NCBI GenBank assembly: GCA_009784615.1
Contig: WRBJ01000005.1
Location: 4,775-68,774, forward strand
DNA length: 64,000 bases
Source of the DNA: Defluviitaleaceae bacterium
Lineage (GTDB): Bacteria > Bacillota > Clostridia > Lachnospirales > WRAX01
Direction of reading: 5' to 3'
Positions 1,910 through 30,562 of the stretch are shown here, piece after piece. The notes below the pieces were generated by a model. That model was not told where the DNA came from and made no database searches. It saw nothing but the letters and a program-made list of their open reading frames with translations. Each line of letters opens with the position of its first letter. Within the stretch, counting starts at the first letter, position 1. The position numbers and the translations under genes were made by a program.

Positions 1910-2250
1910 TGAATAATACAAACGAAAAGCGTATTTTGTCTATGCTTAGCTTGGCAAAAAAGGCAGGTAAAATAATAACGGGTGAAGATGGCTGTGTTAA
2001 AGCTATACAAAAAGATAATGCAAAATTGGTTTTGGTTGCCACAGACGCATCCGACAACACAAAAAAGAAATTTAACGACAAAACCAAATTTTATAATGTG
2101 CCTATACACAGCATATTTACAAAGGAGATGGTATCGGCAAATATAGGTTTGCAAAACCGAGCCACAATCGTAATTACTGACGAAGGCTTCGGTTCAAAAA
2201 TTGAAGATTTGATTGTGAAAGGGTGGACAAATGGCGAAGAAACGCATTAA
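1909..2250 (+). CDS. ylxQ: L7Ae/L30e-family RNA-binding protein YlxQ
   Basis: [16 protein letters not shown] and LVLVATDAS motifs. The ATG overlaps the ylxR stop (TAATG). Conserved position upstream of infB. Confidence 0.85.
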
Positions 2251-5029
2251 CGAAATAGCCAAAGATTTAGGGGTAACATCAAAGGAAATAATAGGCTTTT
2301 TACCCCAAGTAAACATAGAAGGAAAAACAACACATTCTCATAGCCTAGAGGGTGCTGAAATTCAAAAGGTTATGGCGCATTTTGGCGAAAAACCAGAGAA
2401 AATAGAAAAGCCTATGGAAAAAGCTCCAAAGGCTGATATTGTTGTGGAAAAACCAAAAGAGGAAAAACCTCAACAACCTCAACAACCAAAAACAGAACAT
2501 ATTAAAGGTAGCGAGCAACGCCCGCCACGTTTAGACGAAAACGGCAACCCAATACCAAGAAAACCACGCCCACTAGGCGCAGACGGCAAACCATTACCTC
2601 GCCCTGTACGCTACGACGAAAACGGCAATCCAATCCCATGCAAACCACGCCCACTAGGTGCTGATGGCAAGCCTTTGCCACGCTTGGATGCAAATGGCAA
2701 ACCATTGCCAAGAAAACCACGCCCACTAGGCGCAGACGGCAAACCATTACCTCGCCAAGACAGACCGCAGGGTGATAGACCCCGTGGCGACCGTCCGCAA
2801 TACGGCGACAGACCACGCCAACAAGGCGACAGACCACAAGGGCAACGTGACAGACAGTTTGGCGACCGCCCACCACGCCCGCAGGGTGATAGACCACCAC
2901 GCCCACAAGGCGACCGTCCGCAATACGGCGACAGACCAAGACCACAAGGCGACAGACCACAATACGGAAACAACCGTCCACAAGGACAAGGTGGACAACG
3001 TCAAGACTGGGGCAAAAAAGACGGCGGCAACCGCTCGCAAGGCGGCGGATTTAAACAGGATATTCCTGCTGTAGGCGGCGGACGCTCTGGCGGCACTTTC
3101 GGCAAAGGCAAAACCAACGACAAAAAAACAGAGCAGCCACCAGATAAACACGGCAGAAGGCAAAAATTGGAAGCAGGCAAAAAAGACCGCCGACACGACC
3201 CAAGAACCGACGACCGTGAAAAGGCTTTAGAACTACAAAGAAAAACCAAACAACAACAGGCTTCTAACGAGCCAAAGGTTATACAAATTCCTACCACGCT
3301 TACGCTTAAAGAGCTAGCGGAAGTAATGAACAAACAAGGTGCAGAGCTTGTTAAAAACCTATTTAAAAAAGGCGAAATGATAACGCTAACGCAAGAGATT
3401 TCTTTTGAAAAAGCTGAAGAAATTGCCATCGAATATAATATTTTGGCGGAACTAAAGGTTGAAGTTGACATTTTAGAAGAAGTTTTTGCAGAAGAAGACG
3501 AAAGCGAAGAAATGCTTCAAGAACGCCCGCCGGTTGTGGTTGTTATGGGACACGTTGACCACGGCAAAACATCGCTTTTGGATGCTATACGCAAAACAGA
3601 TGTGGTAGAAGGCGAAGCAGGCGGCATAACACAACACATAGGTGCATACACCGTTACAATAAACGACCGCCCAATCACTTTCCTAGACACACCAGGACAC
3701 GAGGCGTTTACAGCTATGCGTATGCGTGGCGCACAGGTTACAGATATTGCCATACTGGTAGTAGCCGCAGACGATGGCGTAATGCCGCAAACCATAGAAG
3801 CCATAAGCCATGCCAAAGCCGCAGGTGTCGAAATAATCGTTGCCATCAACAAAATAGACAAACCAGCCGCAGACCCATCACGTGTTATGCAAGAGCTTAC
3901 AGAATACGAGCTTGTCGCAGAAGAATACGGCGGGCAAACCATTTGCGCCCCTGTTTCTGCCAAAACACGTGATGGATTGGAAAATCTGCTAGAAATGGTC
4001 TTGCTTGTAACCGATATGAAGGAATATAAAGCAAACCCCAACAAAAACGCACGTGGCACGGTTATTGAAGCCCAGCTTGATAAAGGCAGAGGACCAGTTG
4101 CGACAGTTTTGGTAAAATCTGGCACACTTGAAATTGGGCAACCAATCGTGGCTGGCACAGCCCACGGTCGTGTACGTGCTATGCTCAATGATAAAGGACA
4201 AAAGGTAACAAGCGCAGGACCTTCCGTACCTGTAGAAATCCTTGGTTTAACAAGCGTTCCTTCTGTCGGTGACTTGTTCTTTGCCGCTAAAAGCGAAAAA
4301 GAAGCACGATACGTTGCCGAAAATATAATAAGCAAACAACGTGTCAAAATGCTTGAGGAAACACCGCAAAAGGTGTCGCTTGACGACCTGTTTAACCAAA
4401 TCCAGGCGGGCAAGGTTAAAGAGCTTAATCTTATCATCAAAGCAGACGTTGGCGGCTCTGTTGAAGCGGTTAAAGCCAGTCTTGAAAAACTTTCCAATAA
4501 CGAAGTGCGCATACGCACAATTTTGGGCGGTGTTGGTGCTGTTACAGAAAGTGACGTAATGCTTGCGTCTGCTTCAAATGCGATTATAATAGGCTTTAAC
4601 GTGCGACCAGAACCTGCGGCAAAAGCCATAGCAGAAGAACAATTGGTTGACATACGCCTATATCGTGTAATCTATAATGCAATTGATGACGTAAAAGCAG
4701 CGATGATTGGTATGCTAGACCCAATTTTTGAAGAAAAAATTATAGGGCATGCCACAATACGCCAAATTTTCAAAGCGTCAGGCATTGGCACTATCGGTGG
4801 CGCATATGTTACCGACGGCAAAATAACACGCTCAGCACAGGTGCGCATATTGCGTGATAATATTGTTGTTTACGAAGGAACACTTGACACACTTCGCCGC
4901 TTCAAAGACGATGTGCGAGAGGTGTTGACCAACTACGAATGTGGTTTGGTGATAAGCAAATTTAACGACATCAAAGAAGGCGATGTGGTTGAAGCTTTTG
5001 TAATGGAAGAAATAAAGCGTACATCATAG
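2231..5029 (+). CDS. infB: translation initiation factor IF-2
   Basis: G-domain motifs [24 protein letters not shown]. 932 aa with a Pro/Arg/Gly-rich repetitive N-terminal region. Confidence 0.97.
2520..2990 (+). repeat. in-frame low-complexity repeats in the infB N-terminal region ([21 protein letters not shown] units, then [10 protein letters not shown] units)
   Basis: Repeated peptide units are visible in the translation. The same DNA generates spurious long ORFs on the opposite strand and in the other frames. Confidence 0.85.
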
Positions 5030-7257: not shown

Positions 7258-8172
7258 ATGCAAATTTTCACTGATAAAAACGTGGATATTACCGCCGCTA
7301 CGGCGGTTTCTATAGGCAAATTTGACGGTGTGCATCGTGGTCATATTGCCCTGCTTGACGAACTAAAGCACGTTGCCTCCAAAAAAGGCTTAAAGACGCT
7401 TGTTTTGACGTTTTCGCCGCATCCTATGGCATTTTTTACTGGCAAACATTTTCCGACCATATTGGAACCCGCCGAAAAGTTAGAAATTATCCGCAATTTG
7501 GGCATTGATTACTATGTGGAATATACATTTGACGCAAAATTTGCACAAACCGAACCAGAGGCATTTTTGCGCAATATTTTGCACGATAAGCTAAAAGGTC
7601 AAGCTATGGTCATTGCGCAGGATTATCGTTTTGGCAAGATGGGCAAGGGTAATGCGGACTTGGCTCGAAAAGTTGGCGACGAACTTGGTATTGCGGTTTC
7701 TGCTATACCGCATATTTTGCACGACGGGCATAAAATTGGGTCTGAATATTTGCGCAAGCTAATAACCGAGAAGAATTTTACACTTATTAGCGAACTTTGT
7801 GGGCGTGATTTTTGTGTTTCGGGCATTGTTGGCAGTGGTGCGCAAAATGGACGCAAAATGGGCTTTCCTACCGCAAATATTAAACCGCACCCTGATAAAA
7901 TATTGCCGCCAAACAGCGTTTATGCCACCACGACGATAATTGACAAAATTGCGTATAAATCTATAACAAATATTGGTTTTCGTCCAACGGTGGATTTGAC
8001 AAATGATGTTGCTACATTAGAAACGCATATTTTGGGGCTTGATGACAATTTATACGGCAAAAAGATTTCTGTTATTTTTGATAAATGGATGAGAGACGAG
8101 CGTAAATTTGCTAGTTTTGACGAATTATCAGCAGAGCTTGCCCGCAATTGCACGCAAAGGGAAATTATGTAA
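7258..8172 (+). CDS. ribF: bifunctional riboflavin kinase / FMN adenylyltransferase
   Basis: GKFDGVHRGH and GFPTANI motifs. GAGGTG lies 9 nt upstream of ATG 7258. GTG 7246 is the alternative start. Confidence 0.93.
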   Translation: MQIFTDKNVDITAATAVSIGKFDGVHRGHIALLDELKHVASKKGLKTLVLTFSPHPMAFFTGKHFPTILEPAEKLEIIRNLGIDYYVEYTFDAKFAQTEPEAFLRNILHDKLKGQAMVIAQDYRFGKMGKGNADLARKVGDELGIAVSAIPHILHDGHKIGSEYLRKLITEKNFTLISELCGRDFCVSGIVGSGAQNGRKMGFPTANIKPHPDKILPPNSVYATTTIIDKIAYKSITNIGFRPTVDLTNDVATLETHILGLDDNLYGKKISVIFDKWMRDERKFASFDELSAELARNCTQREIM

Positions 8173-8899: not shown

Positions 8900-9076
8900 T
8901 TATAAAAGACGGCTTGCTAGGTTTGCACGCTGTTTTTCTTTTTCGGCTTCTAAAAAAATATCGTCTAATGAGATTATAATGCAGTTTTCGCACATACCCA
9001 ACGAATTTATTTCTATAGTGCTAAAACAGCATTGGTAGTGCGTGTTGTAGACGCAAAATGCATTTTCGCATTGCAT
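8900..9076 (-). CDS. 58-aa Cys-rich small protein (MQCENAFCVYNTHYQCCFSTIEINSLGMCENC...), DUF1540-like Cys spacing
   Basis: ATG at 9076 is preceded by GAAAGGTGG plus 10 nt. C-x4-C-x7-CC-x11-C-x2-C pattern. The track ORF 8900-9220 is an upstream extension through the leader. Confidence 0.55.
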   Translation of the reverse strand: MQCENAFCVYNTHYQCCFSTIEINSLGMCENCIIISLDDIFLEAEKEKQRANLASRLL

Positions 9077-9262
9077 AAAAAAATACCACCTTTCAGGTCT
9101 TTTTAAATGTTGAAAGATTTGCTTGACAAATAAGACCTGATGTGATAATATACACTCAAGCCTCCTTTGGGCTGAAGATGCGCTTGTTTGGGTTCTGACT
9201 CTGCAAATAGTGTGACCCAAACAAGCGTTTTTCTTATGACTTCAGCCTTTGAACACCCCTCG
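9077..9262 (-). ncRNA. copy 1 of a conserved structured leader of about 190 nt (unclassified cis-regulatory RNA candidate)
   Basis: Homologous to 29995-30190. On the minus strand, P1 is GGCTGAAG/CTTCAGCC (9240-9247 with 9170-9177). P2 is a 13-bp stem (9181-9193 with 9215-9227). Alternative stems involve 9132-9140. Confidence 0.6.
9123..9151 (+). promoter_or_regulatory. consensus promoter antisense to leader copy 1 (TTGACA-17 bp-TAATAT, TG-extended)
   Basis: TTGACA at 9123-9128, 17-bp spacer, TGaTAATAT with the -10 at 9146-9151. The same element is conserved in copy 2 on the opposite strand. Confidence 0.5.
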
Positions 9263-9268
9263 ACACTG

Positions 9269-9297
9269 ATTATATCTTATTGGTTGGTGTTTGTCAA
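9269..9297 (-). promoter_or_regulatory. consensus sigma-A-type promoter of leader copy 1 (TTGACA-17 bp-TATAAT) with upstream A-tract
   Basis: The minus strand reads AAAAAAATCCCTTGACA-17-TATAAT (plus coordinates: -35 at 9292-9297, -10 at 9269-9274). Confidence 0.65.
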
Positions 9298-9339
9298 GGG
9301 ATTTTTTTGGTTTGGTGGAGTTTTTTGTCAAATTGGCAG

Positions 9340-9367
9340 GTAGGGACACAATATATTGTGTCCCTAC
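9340..9367. repeat. perfect 28-bp palindrome (GTAGGGACACAATATATTGTGTCCCTAC)
   Basis: An 11-bp stem plus a self-complementary ATATAT centre, lying between the dacB-like stop (9376) and module copy 1. No adjacent U-tract on either strand. Confidence 0.8.
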
Positions 9368-9375
9368 GGTTATAT

Positions 9376-10809
9376 TTAGCGGTATTTGTACGATTTTGAC
9401 ATACGGGATTTGCGGTAGATGTTGCGGCGGTTTTTTCTGCGGCGGGTGAAGCGTAGAAATTTTATTATGGCGGCGGTTATTAGCAGTGATGTGGCTATTG
9501 CGATAATGTAAAGGAAAGGGCCTGGGGTTGTTAGCCAGTTTGGCAATGGGATTGGGTCGTTGGTGTTGTAGATGATGTTTGCGATGTTTTGTTGGATGTG
9601 GGTGGTGGAAAGGCTTGTTAGGTCGTTTTGGTTTAGGGCGTTGCCTTCTCTGGCGGTGCGTAGTTCTGTTTCGTGTATTATGCGGTCGCCCAAGGTTAGG
9701 CTAATTCTGCCGACAATGGTATTTTCTGCTATTGGGGCTGTTAGTCTGTTTGGTAGGGTGTAGTTTATTTGGATTTCTTGCGGGTCTATTGTGTTTGGCA
9801 ATGGCAAGATGGCGTTATTTGCGGCATAGACTGGCATATGGTCGATTATTATTGTGCCTTGGTCGGAGCGTTGCACCAAATCTACGAAAAACGAAAAGTC
9901 GCTTGCGGTGTAAAAATTGTGGGTTTCAAATTGCGAAAAGCCATAATTCATTAGACGTATTGTGTCGGCAAAGATTATTTCACGTCTGGGAGCCGACATT
10001 ACAACGGAAATTAGCTCTATACCATCACGCTTGCCGTAGGTTACCAATGTGTGTCCTGCGGGGGTTGTCCAGCCTGTTTTACCGCCGACGATTATTGGTG
10101 AAAATTGGGGCATTGTTGGGCGTACCAGCAGGTTTGTGTTGTCTATTATGCGTGGCTCTGGCTGTAGTTCTGTTGGGTGGATTATGAAGCGTGGCGTGTT
10201 TATTACTTCTACAAATACATCGTGGCGGATGGCTTCACGCATTATTAGGTGCATATCGTATAGGGTTGTTACGTGGTTTGGGTCGTGCAAGCCGTGGGCG
10301 TTTGTGAAATTGGTGTTTACGGCACCTAGTTCGTGCGCACGGTTGGTCATCATCTGTGCAAATGTTTCCATATCGCCTGCTACAAATTCTGCAATGGCGT
10401 TTGAAACGTCGTTTGCGCTGGGTAACATAATGGCGTATAGAGCTTGTAAGACGGTTAAGGTTTCGCTTGGGCTCATATAAATATGGCTGGAATTGCGAGG
10501 GATGCTAAAGACGGCATCACGTGAATGGAAAATTCTGTCGGTTAGGTCTGCGCCGCTTTCGATTAGAAGTAGGGCAGTCATTACCTTTGTCATACTGGCG
10601 GGATAAGTTGGGGCGTTAATGTCGCCGTTTTCGTGCAAAATAACGCCTGTTGCGGCGCATACTATTATGCCGAAAGGGGCTTCTAAATTTAGTAGCGGTG
10701 GAGCGGCGGCTTCTTCGTTATCGTCGGCAAAAATTGTAAAGGGCGCGAAAATGCCGCTTGCAATGGCTATTATCAAAAAATATATTAAAATTTTGCTTAT
10801 TTTTCGCAT
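9376..10809 (-). CDS. D-alanyl-D-alanine carboxypeptidase (peptidase S11, low-molecular-weight PBP) with a C-terminal membrane anchor
   Basis: SMTK (SxxK), SAN (SxN) and KTG motifs, an N-terminal signal/TM segment and a basic C-terminal tail. Confidence 0.88.
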   Translation of the reverse strand: MRKISKILIYFLIIAIASGIFAPFTIFADDNEEAAAPPLLNLEAPFGIIVCAATGVILHENGDINAPTYPASMTKVMTALLLIESGADLTDRIFHSRDAVFSIPRNSSHIYMSPSETLTVLQALYAIMLPSANDVSNAIAEFVAGDMETFAQMMTNRAHELGAVNTNFTNAHGLHDPNHVTTLYDMHLIMREAIRHDVFVEVINTPRFIIHPTELQPEPRIIDNTNLLVRPTMPQFSPIIVGGKTGWTTPAGHTLVTYGKRDGIELISVVMSAPRREIIFADTIRLMNYGFSQFETHNFYTASDFSFFVDLVQRSDQGTIIIDHMPVYAANNAILPLPNTIDPQEIQINYTLPNRLTAPIAENTIVGRISLTLGDRIIHETELRTAREGNALNQNDLTSLSTTHIQQNIANIIYNTNDPIPLPNWLTTPGPFLYIIAIATSLLITAAIIKFLRFTRRRKNRRNIYRKSRMSKSYKYR

Positions 10810-12984: not shown

Positions 12985-13786
12985 TGTGGAAATGAACGAA
13001 AAAATACAAAAAATAGAAAATGAATTGAAGAAATATATAGACGAGCTAAATTGCCCTGCACAGCTAAAAGAAGCTATGGAGTACAGCCTTTTTACGGGCG
13101 GCAAGCGGCTTCGCCCAGTTATATTGCTTGCTGTGTGCGAGATGCTGGGTGGCGAGGACGAGGCGGCATTGCCTTTTGCTGCTGCTCTTGAAATGATACA
13201 TACATATTCGCTTATACACGACGATTTGCCTGCTATGGATGATGACGATATGCGCCGTGGCAAACCTACAAATCATAAGGTTTTTGGTGAAGGAATTGCT
13301 ATACTTTCTGGCGATGCTTTGCTTAATTACGCCTACGAAATAATGGCAGATTTCTGCCTTTTGCACGAAGAAGCAAATATGCTTGAAGCAATGAGCAAAA
13401 TCGCACGTTATGCGGGTGCCAGCGGTATGATTGGTGGGCAAGTGATGGATATAGACTTATCAAACCCGACACGTGAACAACTTGCGTATATTGATGCCAA
13501 TAAGACCGCAAAGCTCTTTATGGCGGCGTTTGCGGCGGGTGCTTTATGTGCTTTTCGTGATGAAGATACGGTTGCTAAAATGGAAAATATAGGGCGCAAT
13601 TTTGGGCTTGCCTTCCAATTGTTGGATGATATTACCGATAATTCGCCAAGCCTTTCTGTTTGGGGTAAGGAAAATGCCGAAAAAGCTCTTATTAGTTTGA
13701 TTTGGGAAGTTACGGCTAACCTTAAAGAAATCGAAGGCAGTGATTTTTTAATCGACTTAGTAAGCTATGTTGCGGCAAAACAATAG
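12968..13786 (+). CDS. ispA: polyprenyl (farnesyl/geranylgeranyl) diphosphate synthase
   Basis: First DDxxD-type motif IHDDLPAMDDDDMRRG and second motif LLDDITD. Confidence 0.9.
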   Translation: MKMSFNVEMNEKIQKIENELKKYIDELNCPAQLKEAMEYSLFTGGKRLRPVILLAVCEMLGGEDEAALPFAAALEMIHTYSLIHDDLPAMDDDDMRRGKPTNHKVFGEGIAILSGDALLNYAYEIMADFCLLHEEANMLEAMSKIARYAGASGMIGGQVMDIDLSNPTREQLAYIDANKTAKLFMAAFAAGALCAFRDEDTVAKMENIGRNFGLAFQLLDDITDNSPSLSVWGKENAEKALISLIWEVTANLKEIEGSDFLIDLVSYVAAKQ

Positions 13787-21594: not shown

Positions 21595-21642
21595 GGTTTG
21601 GTTTGGTACTATATATGTAAAACAATTAACGGAGGAATAGAT

Positions 21643-22944
21643 ATGGGATTGATAAGAGCGGCAATTGGTGCGGCAACAGGAACAATGGCAGACCAGTGGT
21701 TAGAGTTTTTTTACGCAGATGCTATGCCTAATAATGTGTTGGTTACACGCGGCATACGACAAACATCCGGTCGTGGGCAAAACCGTGGTAATGATAATAT
21801 TATTTCTAACGGTAGCGGCATCGCCGTTGCGGACGGGCAATGTATGATGATAGTTCAGGATGGGCGTATTTTGGATGTTTGTGCCGAACCGGGGCGGTAT
21901 ACTTTTGAACAAGGAAGCTCGCCAAGCCTTTTCTCGGGTTCTTTGGGCGAAAATATTATGGGTACTTTTAAAACAATGGCAAGCAGATTTGCCCACGCAG
22001 GCGAAACTGGAAAAGACCAGCGTGTATATTATTTTAATATACGTGAACTTGTTGGGAATAAATTCGGCACAGCAACGCCTGTACCTTTTAGAATCGTTGA
22101 CACAAATATAGGTCTTGATTTGGATACCGCCGTACGTTGCAATGGTATGTATTCTTTTAGAATGACCGACCCATTATTGTTCTATACAAATATATCAGGT
22201 AATGTGACACAAGATTATACGATAGAACAAATTGACCAGCAAATGAAAAGCGAGTTTTTATCGGCTTTGCAACCTGCTTTCGCACGTCTTTCTGCTATGG
22301 GTATGCGTCCATCGCAAATTCCTGCACATACGCAAGAATTATCGCAGTTTCTTAACGAAGCGTTAAGTGAAAAATGGGGCGGCTTGCGTGGTATGTCCGT
22401 TATTTCTGTGGCAATAAATTCTGTATCTTTGCCGCCAGAAGATGACGATATGATTAAGCAATTGCAACGCAAGGCTGTTATGCGTGACCCGGGTATGGCT
22501 GGTGCGGCCATTGTGGCGGCACAAGCGGATGCTATGCGAGGTGCGGCAGAAAACCCAAATGGTGCTATGATGGGCTTTATGGGGCTTAATATGGCACAAC
22601 AAGCGGGCGGAATGAATGCGCAAGAGCTGTTAATGCAGGGTCAACAACAGCAACAGCAAAGAGCGGCAGAAGCGGCACAGGCAGCCGCTATATCACCATC
22701 AGTTGATGTAGCTGGCGGCTGGGCTTGTGCGTGCGGTGCAACAAACACAGGTCGTTTTTGTGCTGATTGCGGCACGGCAAAGCCTGTTGTCGAAAATTGG
22801 ACTTGCACCTGCGGTACAACCAATGCGGGACGTTTTTGTGGCGAATGTGGTTCGCAACGTCCAGAAAACACCGATTGGACTTGCAATTGCGGAGCAGTCA
22901 ACACGGGGCGTTTTTGCGGAGAATGCGGGATGGCTCGCAACTAG
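21643..22944 (+). CDS. SPFH-domain protein (YdjI/COG4260-like) with a Q-rich linker and three C-terminal zinc-ribbon repeats
   Basis: MGLIRAAIGAATGTMADQWLEFF N-terminus typical of YdjI-like SPFH proteins. GGAGG lies 7 nt upstream of ATG 21643. Three repeats of W-x-C-x-CG-x2-N-xGRFC-x2-CG. Confidence 0.7.
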   Translation: MGLIRAAIGAATGTMADQWLEFFYADAMPNNVLVTRGIRQTSGRGQNRGNDNIISNGSGIAVADGQCMMIVQDGRILDVCAEPGRYTFEQGSSPSLFSGSLGENIMGTFKTMASRFAHAGETGKDQRVYYFNIRELVGNKFGTATPVPFRIVDTNIGLDLDTAVRCNGMYSFRMTDPLLFYTNISGNVTQDYTIEQIDQQMKSEFLSALQPAFARLSAMGMRPSQIPAHTQELSQFLNEALSEKWGGLRGMSVISVAINSVSLPPEDDDMIKQLQRKAVMRDPGMAGAAIVAAQADAMRGAAENPNGAMMGFMGLNMAQQAGGMNAQELLMQGQQQQQQRAAEAAQAAAISPSVDVAGGWACACGATNTGRFCADCGTAKPVVENWTCTCGTTNAGRFCGECGSQRPENTDWTCNCGAVNTGRFCGECGMARN

Positions 22945-29228: not shown

Positions 29229-29260
29229 ATAAGGCGACCACCATCGGTCGCCTTATTTTT
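29229..29260. terminator. bidirectional intrinsic terminator
   Basis: ATAAGGCGACC-ACCAT-GGTCGCCTTAT with 11 bp of pairing, flanked by an A-run and a T-run. Confidence 0.8.
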
Positions 29261-29844
29261 TACGAACCAAAATCTTCCAAAGCCCGCAACAATTCGTCAT
29301 TGCCCGTTACACGTATACCTTCTATTAGGCGTTGTTGTTCTTCTTGCGCTAATGCAGATATTGGGCGGTTTGTCAGCTCTTTTATATCGCCTGTTTCGTC
29401 GTCATAAAAAACCGCAATAAAACCTTCGTGTATAGATATAATGTATTGGCGGTGAAAAAGGGCAGTGTCTTGACGCAAATGCACTTGTTCGGATGTAAAA
29501 GACAATATTTCCCAATCGGCAAAAACAGCCACAAGCTCATCTTTGGCTAACCCTAGCAAAAACGGCGAAGGATGTTCCGACACGCTATCAAACCCGCCAG
29601 TTTCACGCTGATAATAATCAAATGTCATAACAGTGGACGGCGATATTCTGTCAATGCCATCAGTGTGTAATACAATTTCGGGCAGGTCTTCATTTTGGAC
29701 ATCATCCACAACCTCGCCATCATACACAACGGGCGTTACAGGCACATCCGTCCTATCCGCCATCAACGAAAACACCATAATACCGCCCAAAGACATCATC
29801 GCAACCATCATCAGCACTACCAAAATATACATAACTCTTTTCAT
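29260..29844 (-). CDS. membrane-anchored protein with a BofC C-terminal-domain-like region
   Basis: N-terminal TM helix. The C-terminal GFIAVFYDDETGDIKELTNRPISALAQEEQQRLIEGIRV pattern resembles the BofC_C domain. Confidence 0.35.
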   Translation of the reverse strand: MKRVMYILVVLMMVAMMSLGGIMVFSLMADRTDVPVTPVVYDGEVVDDVQNEDLPEIVLHTDGIDRISPSTVMTFDYYQRETGGFDSVSEHPSPFLLGLAKDELVAVFADWEILSFTSEQVHLRQDTALFHRQYIISIHEGFIAVFYDDETGDIKELTNRPISALAQEEQQRLIEGIRVTGNDELLRALEDFGS

Positions 29845-29959
29845 AACAACCGCTTCCTTAATGGGTTTGACCCCTTTTTATAAGGAAGTATTTACATTTT
29901 ATGGTACTTTTATACATTAATCAGTTTGACAAGATTATACAAAAAATAAAAAAAAGCCC

Positions 29960-29988
29960 TTGACAAGAGCCAAACAATAGTATACAAT
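29960..29988 (+). promoter_or_regulatory. sigma-A-type promoter of leader copy 2 (TTGACA-17 bp-TACAAT) with upstream A-tract
   Basis: AAAAAAAAGCCCTTGACA at 29960-29965, 17-bp spacer, TACAAT at 29983-29988. Confidence 0.65.
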
Positions 29989-29994
29989 CAATAT

Positions 29995-30190
29995 CGGGAG
30001 TATTTCAAAGGACTTGGTGCATAAGCAATATGCTTGTTGGGTGAAACACAACGTCAAAGTACCCACCCAACAAGCAACCACTAAGTCCTCAGACCTAAGG
30101 TGATATTATCACATTTAGGTCTACTTGTCAAGCACATCTTTAGCGATGTGCCAAAAACAAAAATCTGACCTGAAAGGTGGTATTTTTTTA
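29995..30190 (+). ncRNA. copy 2 of the conserved structured leader (unclassified cis-regulatory RNA candidate)
   Basis: P1 pairs 30010-30019 with 30079-30088. P2 pairs 30032-30043 with 30064-30075. Alternative stems are 30091-30098/30115-30122 and 30114-30121/30167-30174. The SD lies at 30173-30180. Confidence 0.6.
30103..30131 (-). promoter_or_regulatory. consensus promoter antisense to leader copy 2 (TTGACA-17 bp-TAATAT)
   Basis: The minus strand reads TTGACA (30131-30126), a 17-bp spacer, then TGaTAATAT (-10 at 30108-30103). Same architecture as 9123-9151. Confidence 0.5.
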
Positions 30191-30532
30191 ATGAACAGGG
30201 ATTTTAGGTACATGCAAGATGTTGGCACAAGGACAATTTGCAAACAAAACATGATGTTTTTGCCGCAAGATTTAACCGACCATTTGCGGCTGGTAGAAGG
30301 CTCTTTGTTTTCTTTATTACCTATGGGTAGCATAGTGATATTGCGGTTGTTAAAGGAAGATGACGACAAACATCAACATTATTTTACAACATCTATGGAT
30401 TTGTTAGGCAGAATTGAAATACCCAAAGTATTAAGAGAAGCTATGGGTTGGGATTGTAAGGAAAGATATGACATATCTGTTTATTATGTTGATGACGAGA
30501 TGGTTATTTTACAAAAATATGTTAATAAATAA
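30191..30532 (+). CDS. 113-aa protein with a C-terminal SpoVT/AbrB-type swapped-hairpin domain and a possible second degenerate copy at the N-terminus
   Basis: LGRIEIPKVLREAMGWDCKERYDISVYYVDDEMVILQK matches the AbrB/MazE/SpoVT pattern. ATG 30191 is preceded by GAAAGGTGG. The track ORF from 30125 runs through the leader. Confidence 0.6.
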   Translation: MNRDFRYMQDVGTRTICKQNMMFLPQDLTDHLRLVEGSLFSLLPMGSIVILRLLKEDDDKHQHYFTTSMDLLGRIEIPKVLREAMGWDCKERYDISVYYVDDEMVILQKYVNK

Positions 30533-30535
30533 AAC

Positions 30536-30562
30536 AAGGGCGACCAAAACACGGTCGCCCTT
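30536..30562. terminator. bidirectional intrinsic terminator
   Basis: AAGGGCGACC-AAAACAC-GGTCGCCCTT followed by TCCTTTAT. Confidence 0.75.

Follow-up and report, generated by a model that had tools for sequence, protein, structure and literature searches.

A 64,000-nt stretch of DNA from an uncultured Defluviitaleaceae bacterium (contig WRBJ01000005.1, positions 4,775 to 68,774; hereafter the window, numbered from its first letter) carries two copies of a structured leader. Copy 2 (c2) precedes ORF2, an open reading frame (ORF) of 113 aa, and copy 1 (c1) precedes ORF1, of 58 aa, on the other strand. The leaders share 74% identity across ~240 nt of alignment. A sequence-only reading of the window had described two nested stems, P1 and P2, that differ between the copies and pair in both, and had taken them for a selected RNA fold. 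Here, we investigated this fold and its surroundings computationally. The window copies consist of the following features:

29995-30190, plus strand: copy 2 leader (c2), the 5' leader of ORF2, with the ATG at 30191
30010..30088, plus strand: copy 2 P1/P2 domain
30010-30019 with 30079-30088, plus strand: copy 2 P1, GGACTTGGTG with CACTAAGTCC, 10 bp including one G.U
30020-30031, plus strand: copy 2 junction J1/2, 12 nt, CATAAGCAATAT
30032-30043 with 30064-30075, plus strand: copy 2 P2, GCTTGTTGGGTG with CACCCAACAAGC
30044-30063, plus strand: copy 2 P2 loop, 20 nt
30076-30078, plus strand: copy 2 junction J2/1, 3 nt, AAC
~9300-9077, minus strand: copy 1 leader (c1), upstream of ORF1, with the ATG at 9076
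9170..9247, minus strand: copy 1 P1/P2 domain
9247-9240 with 9177-9170, minus strand: copy 1 P1, GGCTGAAG with CTTCAGCC, 8 bp
9239-9228, minus strand: copy 1 J1/2, 12 nt, TCATAAGAAAAA
9227-9215 with 9193-9181, minus strand: copy 1 P2, CGCTTGTTTGGGT with ACCCAAACAAGCG, 13 bp
9214-9194, minus strand: copy 1 P2 loop, 21 nt
9180-9178, minus strand: copy 1 J2/1, 3 nt, CAT

Pairing in four copies of the leader

P1 pairs at these positions in both copies despite its different sequence, and P2 is present as a 12-bp stem in copy 2 and a 13-bp stem in copy 1. The compensated insertion in the copy 1 P2 is real, with one additional T in the 5' arm offset by one additional A in the 3' arm, and a repeat search returned the copy 2 P2 as 13-nt arms with 100% complementarity. 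Both helices were recovered in the minimum free energy folds of the two whole leaders, together with a third hairpin, P3. The z-scores of these whole-leader folds are -5.8 and -4.7, and 0/200 shuffles folded as well.

Relatives were reached via homologs of the neighbouring DacB gene, and ~285 kb around them were collected and searched with nhmmer and then with a covariance model based on copy 2 only. The model recovered c1 at E=7e-17 and found two additional leaders, both in other uncultured Defluviitaleaceae, with no further copies in the ~285 kb:

L024 7627-7502, minus strand: c3 leader, covariance model E=2e-6
L036 13546-13668, plus strand: c4 leader, covariance model E=9e-6

The full architecture of the window copies, namely a sense promoter, P1, P2, P3 and an antisense promoter, is found in both. 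P1 reads GGGA(UA)CUGU/ACAGUCCC in c3 and (U)GGGC/GCCC(A), 4-5 bp, in c4. The P2 arms are GGUGCUUGCC/GGCAAGCACC, or GGTGCTTGCC/GGCAAGCACC, in c3 and GACACGUUCGC/GCGAACGUGUC, or GACACGTTCGC/GCGAACGTGTC, in c4, each unrelated in sequence to the other copies. The P3 hairpin of c3 and c4 has similar arms (AGACCUAAGG.. / AGCCUAAGUU..), and their Shine-Dalgarno (SD) regions differ from those of c1 and c2. Scans of other collections gave chance matches only: three in metagenomes with TTCAAAGG-N-CATAAG-N-TATTATCAC and three with GACCTGAAAGGTGGTATTT in a genome collection that does not contain the source genome. Viral contigs returned 0 matches to the SD block and 0 to the P3 pattern, and blastn of the leader against phages and plasmids returned nothing relevant.

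MAFFT, even on N-padded sequences, gave no structure-consistent alignment, and we scored a hand-made structural alignment of the four copies (32 pairs) and a model-fitted alignment instead. In the hand alignment, standard pairs fill 108/108 scored cells and both sides have changed in 19 of the 32 pairs (P1 6/10, P2 12/13, P3 1/9). These values were reached by 0/2000 column shuffles, and pairing falls to 25-49% when the partners are slid. In the model-fitted alignment, 95.6% of cells are paired vs 68.7% in shuffles (0/500), with both-side changes in 28/38 pairs vs 11.9 expected and 30-42% pairing after sliding. Helix lengths (4 to 10 bp for P1, 10 to 13 bp for P2) and an internal loop persist across the copies, with the sequence left free. 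What counts against the fold is that both alignments are biased towards structure and that only four sequences from three species were available, c1 and c2 being close paralogs; the covariation is therefore below R-scape grade.

Nevertheless, perfect helices of unrelated sequence in the same position at four loci are difficult to explain without selection for pairing. The two added homologs preserve P1 and P2 pairing in the same position with unrelated stem sequences, which upholds the earlier view of a selected RNA fold rather than a remnant of duplication alone. P1/P2 is very probably a selected fold, and covariation between two paralogs can flag real structure. Two details of the sequence-only reading hold for the window paralogs only: the equal junctions of 12 and 3 nt become 4 and 5 nt in c3 and 8 and 7 nt in c4, and the CATAAG motif, present in c1 and c2, is absent from c3 and c4. 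The P2 loops, described as unconserved in sequence and 20-21 nt long, keep to this in the added homologs (20 nt in each).

No unpaired nucleotide is common to the four P1/P2 domains when junctions and loops are compared. J1/2 reads UCAUAAGAAAAA, CAUAAGCAAUAU, AAAG and AAAUAAAA in c1 to c4, and J2/1 reads CAU, AAC, UACAC and AUCACAG; the four P2 loops hold no motif at a fixed position. The whole window had 0 matches to Rfam 15 at gathering score. The four leaders gave only sub-threshold chance matches to Rfam (E<=1 or E<=10) to snoRNA, miRNA and ctRNA_pND324 families, the last at 24.7 bits vs a cutoff of 45. A retron msr-msd was rejected, as the downstream ORFs are of 58-113 aa and have no reverse transcriptase domain.

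On the antisense strand, folding of P1/P2 is as favourable or more so, and so folding energy does not decide the strand and was dropped as a means of choosing it. All four G.U pairs are on the sense strand (one in the c2 P1, three in P3 of c1 and c2) and there are no A.C cells, which would read as G.U in the antisense RNA, a weak vote for a sense RNA and against DNA palindromes. P3 of c1 has -11.5 kcal/mol in the sense direction vs -3.2 for the reverse complement.

Other inverted repeats lie near the two homologs. Directly upstream of c3, L024 has a perfect 32-nt inverted repeat (7750-7781 / 7884-7915, arms 102 nt apart) without an Rfam match; a 71-aa ORF is called on it in L024 but has no counterpart call in the identical L025. 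The repeat is probably a separate element, either structured or mobile. Upstream of c4, an intergenic 19-nt inverted repeat at L036 13317-13335 / 13402-13420, 84% complementary and with an inner hairpin, had no significant Rfam match.

Facing promoters and the predicted antisense RNA

Downstream of P1 lies a conserved block, ATATTATCACAT-N10-TTGTCAAGC. Read on the opposite strand, it has the make-up of a sigma-A promoter close to consensus, including an extended -10 (GC-TTGACA-17 nt-(TGa)TAATAT), a feature that the sequence-only reading had not recognised. The clue came from 13 unrelated viral contigs that match this pattern, in each of which it is a reverse-complemented promoter before a gene on the other strand. 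The promoters and predicted transcripts of the window copies, with predicted transcription start sites (TSS), are as follows:

29960..29988, plus strand: copy 2 sense promoter, TTGACA-17-TACAAT, 11/12; predicted TSS ~29995
30103..30131, minus strand: copy 2 antisense promoter, TTGACA-17-TAATAT with TG (extended -10); predicted TSS ~30096
29947..30096, minus strand: copy 2 predicted cis-antisense RNA, ~150 nt, with a mirror P1'/P2' hairpin
29971-29955, then T8, minus strand: copy 2 terminator-like hairpin in the antisense direction, the end of the predicted antisense RNA
9269..9297, minus strand: copy 1 sense promoter, TTGACA-17-TATAAT, 12/12; predicted TSS ~9262
9123..9151, plus strand: copy 1 antisense promoter, TTGACA-17-TAATAT with TG; predicted TSS ~9158
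9158..9377, plus strand: copy 1 predicted cis-antisense RNA, ~215 nt, ending at a terminator-like hairpin at 9340-9367

Both promoters are present in all four copies. In a promoter scan, the sense promoters of c1 to c4 score 12/12, 11/12, 11/12 and 11/12, and the antisense promoters 10/12 with TG, 10/12 with TG, 12/12 and 11/12, with spacers of 17-18 nt (TTGACA-18-TATAAT in c3, TTGACT-17-TATAAT in c4). The promoters of each copy face each other ~75-105 nt apart. In the window copies, the antisense promoter is ~100 nt downstream of the sense start and fires back. P1/P2 would thus be transcribed in both directions and, at this spacing, would be the overlap of the two transcripts. The sequence of the antisense -10 region differs among c1/c2, c3 and c4, yet the consensus is retained, which argues for selection for promoter function. 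Judging from its sequence, the antisense promoter is likely to be functional.

Within P3, the apical loop holds the antisense -10, the 3' arm forms the promoter spacer and the 5' arm contains the predicted antisense start. P3 would therefore be possible only in the sense RNA. The predicted antisense RNA is the complement of the P3 base, the entire P1/P2 domain and the mRNA 5' end, and beyond these it crosses the sense promoter. Directly past that promoter, terminator-like hairpins in the antisense direction were found by scan in c1, c2 and c3, and by eye as an 18-nt inverted repeat with a T-run in c4. In c1, c3 and c4, no gene is served by the antisense transcript, which in c1 enters the 3' end of dacB. 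A conserved opposite-strand promoter inside the target transcript, as expected of a cis-antisense RNA, is thus seen in all four copies.

A BofC-like gene (weak PF08955 match) at 29260-29844 on the minus strand is divergent to ORF2, and the copy 2 antisense promoter points at it. With read-through of the weak terminator at 29971-29955, the antisense transcript of c2 might also be the mRNA of this gene. In copy 1, a 35-aa hydrophobic ORF, MTSAFEHPSTLIISYWLVFVKGFFWFGGVFCQIGR, lies on the antisense strand (window 9236-9343, plus), and its ATG is inside CTTATG, the reverse complement of CATAAG. An antisense-encoded peptide was rejected, as only 5 aa follow from this ATG in c2 and an SD sequence is lacking; the ORF is probably not coding.

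P3, the SD block and the downstream genes

Between P1/P2 and the start codon, the window copies contain P3 and an SD block:

30091..30122, plus strand: copy 2 P3, AGACCTAAGGTGATA / TATCACATTTAGGTCT; the antisense -10 and spacer fall in its loop and 3' arm
30167..30190, plus strand: copy 2 SD block, GACCTGAAAGGTGGTATTTTTTTA, 24 nt identical to copy 1
30173-30180, plus strand: copy 2 SD core, AAAGGTGG
9133..9163, minus strand: copy 1 P3, AGGCTTGAGTG...CACATCAGGTCT, with two G.U pairs on the sense strand
9076..9099, minus strand: copy 1 SD block, the same 24 nt as copy 2, adjoining the ATG at 9076

The 3' arm of P3 is complementary to the SD region, and its 5' arm mimics the SD block. The duplex between the 3' arm and the SD region has -19.7 kcal/mol in c1 and -17.2 kcal/mol in c2, with duplexes as good in 0/500 shuffles of each, and -13.5 kcal/mol in c4 (p ~0.014). 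When the nucleotides covered by the antisense RNA are blocked, predicted SD accessibility drops in c1 (0.64 to 0.32) and in c2 (0.46 to 0.20). A general SD-occlusion switch was rejected, as this drop is limited to c1 and c2. In c1 and c2, the alternative P3/SD helix would be followed by a run of seven U, which is absent from c3 and c4, and a conserved terminator after P3 was likewise rejected for want of a U-run. No upstream ORF is conserved in the leader. A P3/SD switch is plausible, though perhaps not general, and may act in either direction.

The leaders end at small genes:

30191..30532, plus strand: ORF2, 113 aa, with a C-terminal AbrB/SpoVT-type domain
30536-30562: bidirectional terminator directly after ORF2, followed by a convergent oxidoreductase gene
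8900..9076, minus strand: ORF1, 58 aa, small and Cys-rich, of a family weakly related to DUF1540

ORF2 matches AbrB (PDB 1yfb, E=2.6e-4) and phrog_4681 'antitoxin' (E=7e-7), and its only Pfam match at E<=10 is MraZ (E=0.12). Full HMMER searches gave ORF1 a family of 197 representative relatives of ~55-75 aa with invariant cysteines (M.C....C.Y.....C..........G.C..C); 9 of 40 aligned members weakly match DUF1540 (E<=0.01). Word-indexed homolog searches with ORF1 and ORF2 returned the query proteins only. The gene after c3 encodes a 60-aa MazE/AbrB protein (PF04014, 30.6 bits, above cutoff) and is followed by a terminator and xseB. The ORF after c4 is cut off at the contig end. Thus, the leader and its promoters, which we refer to as the cassette, front unrelated small genes, two with AbrB domains, one Cys-rich and one truncated. 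The similarity of c1 and c2 includes 24 identical nt up to the ATG and ends there.

Furthermore, the cassette is absent at orthologous sites. In L022, the closest relative, dacB overlaps the Ham1-family gene. The xseA and xseB genes abut or overlap in L027, L033, L034 and L036 and are 20 nt apart in L032, and they are separated by the c3 cassette in L024. No terminal inverted repeats or target-site duplications flank the four cassettes, which do not have the features of miniature inverted-repeat transposable elements; P1 is itself an inverted repeat, but it differs between copies.

In the relatives, modules of a BrnT toxin with a small partner gene (L034 9089-9581; L035 6126-6618; L036 8569-8991) are inserted in the same conserved nusB-xseA / infB-rbfA gene rows, a neighbourhood that seems to collect small accessory modules. 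Elsewhere in the window, nested tandem repeats (units of ~80, 54 and 46 nt) at 2524-2993, inside a 932-aa ORF (2231-5029), are likely the repetitive N-terminal region of a large protein. A 55-nt repeat occurs three times at 78-nt spacing at 22718-22928 in the ORF 21598-22944 and encodes a repeated Cys-containing motif.

Proposed antisense control, rival explanations and related systems

The nested stems are real, selected and undescribed. We propose that they belong to a portable promoter-leader cassette in which P1/P2 is the structured overlap of a head-to-head mRNA and antisense RNA, with antisense control of the downstream gene, a reading to which we give about even chances. Each copy would be a self-contained, portable 5' regulatory unit of ~230-250 bp. 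A near-consensus sigma-A promoter would start the mRNA, whose first ~75-105 nt would form a long interrupted hairpin (P1, an asymmetric internal loop, and P2 with its 20-21-nt apical loop), followed by P3. A second promoter, embedded in P3 and aimed at the first, would produce a cis-antisense RNA of ~150-215 nt. Its 5' ~75-105 nt would be the exact complement of the P3 base and P1/P2, and the rest would run across the sense promoter to the terminator-like hairpin. The mirror-image hairpins, with their large complementary loops, would be the likely recognition elements. Their stem sequences could drift freely, or diverge against cross-reaction between paralogs, as long as the helices are kept, and helices kept with free sequence are the expectation for sense/antisense recognition structures.

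The output would be control of the small downstream gene by one of three possible routes. The facing promoters may collide or occlude each other, or the two RNAs may form a duplex that is cleaved. Alternatively, at least in the window copies, antisense RNA bound to the 5' base of P3 may free the P3 3' arm to pair with the SD block; this specific refolding step is doubtful. We infer that the antisense RNA would be made and would act on the mRNA, and the direction of its effect is likewise predicted.

Several points weigh against this model. The two promoters and the antisense RNA are predicted only from consensus, and in c2 the antisense promoter could be the plain promoter of the divergent BofC-like gene (29844-29260, minus strand). 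For the refolding route, the duplex of the P3 3' arm with the SD region in c3 (-11.3 kcal/mol) is not better than shuffles (p = 0.18), and predicted SD accessibility is not lowered in c3 and c4 when the overlap is blocked. In c4, codons 3-7 are a further pairing partner of the P3 5' arm, and antisense binding could thus even activate the gene. Known antisense RNAs usually have recognition loops of 5-8 nt rather than 20-21 nt, and the constant 20-21-nt length of the P2 loop is not explained by antisense control.

That constant loop, together with a G-C/G-C base of P1, may instead be a docking site for a trans-acting factor. Alternatively, the cassette may be an autonomous, transferable RNA toggle in which the hairpin sequence is an address label, each copy answering only its own antisense RNA. 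We hold this pair of extensions to be rather improbable. If the toggle reading were true, the cassette would be graftable exactly at the start codon of any small regulator gene, and its copies would be naturally occurring orthogonal antisense switches, a family that spreads inside genomes and from one to another.

Should the antisense model hold, the cassette would be a compact ~240-bp promoter-leader-antisense module reused before unrelated small regulators. It would provide a ready-made set of orthogonal antisense regulators, a design goal of engineered pT181-type attenuators, and a clean test case for convergent promoters combined with RNA refolding. The leaders also represent a structured RNA not described before, from a clostridial family that is uncultured and poorly known.

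A leader acting only in the sense RNA would explain the same fold with the antisense promoter as a secondary or incidental feature: a protein or ligand site (riboswitch-like) or an RNA thermometer, with SD control via P3. The sense-strand position of all four G.U/U.G pairs without A.C cells fits this, as do the restriction of P3 to the sense RNA (and its energies in c1), the expression-platform-like complementarity of the P3 3' arm to the SD region, and the constant P2 loop length. Riboswitch aptamers, however, keep conserved junction and loop positions, and the lack of any such nucleotide in P1/P2 across the four copies makes a poor fit; it also speaks against a ligand-, temperature- or growth-phase-sensing leader, for which the sequence-only reading proposed tests. 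The downstream small proteins are unrelated and have no common metabolic theme, and no pathway or transport function is shared among their genes in the manner of riboswitches. No Rfam family matches, P1/P2 is equally or more stable on the antisense strand, and the retention of a consensus antisense promoter in 4/4 copies would go unexplained. We consider a sense-only leader unlikely. Another rival takes P1 plus P2 as a processing or stability element, with or without an antisense RNA: two stacked ~10-bp helices joined by an asymmetric internal loop are reminiscent of RNase III sites of the phage T7 type or of a hairpin that stabilises the 5' end. Helix lengths and an internal loop are kept with free sequence, which fits. 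The c4 hairpin begins essentially at the predicted 5' end, but ~15-18 unpaired nt precede P1 in c1, c2 and c3, which argues against a 5'-terminal stabiliser. With a c4 P1 of only 4-5 bp and the antisense promoter again unexplained, we regard such an element as improbable.

A type I toxin-antitoxin locus of the symE/symR kind would keep the antisense RNA and make an AbrB-fold or Cys-rich toxin its target. Two of the three complete downstream proteins have the AbrB/MazE fold, as in SymE, and the cassette is patchily distributed at insertion-prone sites where relatives have BrnT modules. Yet neither AbrB-fold protein matches SymE_toxin or another toxin family (Pfam, E<=10), none of the products is a short hydrophobic peptide, and ORF1 is in the Cys-rich family weakly related to DUF1540, not of the AbrB fold. 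The predicted antisense RNA also leaves the SD sequence and AUG uncovered, unlike SymR, whose promoter is inside the symE ORF. The type I reading is distinctly unlikely. A type II system would place a co-transcribed toxin gene next door, and none is found after ORF2 or the L024 ORF, which are each followed by a terminator. Selection could also act on DNA, the repeats being operators, cruciform sites or ends of small mobile elements bound by a host- or cassette-encoded DNA-binding protein. In all four copies, P3 contains a half-site consensus AG(A/C)CCT(A/G)AG with the antisense -10 at its centre, where a repressor would be well placed, and the conserved half-sites could be an operator there; the proteins downstream of c2 and c3 are AbrB-type DNA binders, and the cassette behaves like an insertion. 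For P1/P2, a shared DNA-binding protein is unlikely, since it needs shared sequence and the arms are completely different between copies yet perfectly complementary. The G.U pairs in P1 (c2) and P3 (c1, c2) would be DNA mismatches, the cassettes lack terminal inverted repeats and target-site duplications, and the phage, plasmid and viral collections gave no matches. Selection on DNA is thus very improbable as an explanation.

Under antisense control, the cassette would resemble four known systems, its closest analogues, in its working, with no membership by sequence. SymE/symR of E. coli pairs a small AbrB/MazE-fold protein with a cis-antisense RNA that represses it from opposite the mRNA 5' end (PMC1891008). 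The fold recurs in two cassette genes, but the cassette fails the defining symE/symR features. Its antisense promoter is 60-85 nt upstream of the AUG and leaves the SD sequence uncovered; antisense transcription of c1 and c2 is predicted to start ~75-95 nt before the AUG and to lead away from it, so that the RNA, unlike SymR, would overlap neither the ribosome-binding site nor the start codon. Its proteins have no SymE family match, one gene is Cys-rich and weakly DUF1540-related, and LexA-type control is not evident.

RnaG/icsA of Shigella flexneri likewise has convergent promoters; RnaG promotes premature termination of the icsA mRNA, and transcriptional interference is also discussed (PMC2879508). 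It is from another phylum and has no sequence similarity to the cassette, which is multi-copy, portable between unrelated genes and without a derivable conserved terminator.

Countertranscript-driven attenuation in Gram-positive plasmids, as in the pT181 repC leader (RNAI/RNAII) and the pIP501/pAMbeta1 type, is comparable in several ways (PMC3753616, PMC4878617). A backward-facing promoter within the leader yields an antisense RNA to the 5' part of the mRNA, both RNAs are recognised through their stem-loops, and antisense pairing is proposed to free a downstream segment for an inhibitory helix directly ahead of the start codon. The corresponding helix of c1 and c2 would precede the seven-U run, terminator-like. 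The cassette differs in being chromosomal and in preceding small regulator-like genes rather than a replication initiator, in having no sequence or Rfam similarity, and in its loops of 20-21 nt. Its inhibitory helix would sequester the SD sequence, the U-run is absent in c3 and c4, and the antisense -10 is in the apical loop of the switching hairpin.

Finally, prgQ/prgX of the Enterococcus plasmid pCF10 has face-to-face promoters and overlapping 5' transcripts, with RNA-mediated, reciprocal and RNase III-dependent regulation (PMC3181467). Both pCF10 promoters serve operons, whereas the cassette has a gene on one side only in 3/4 copies, and its overlap of ~75-105 nt is dominated by one long interrupted hairpin.

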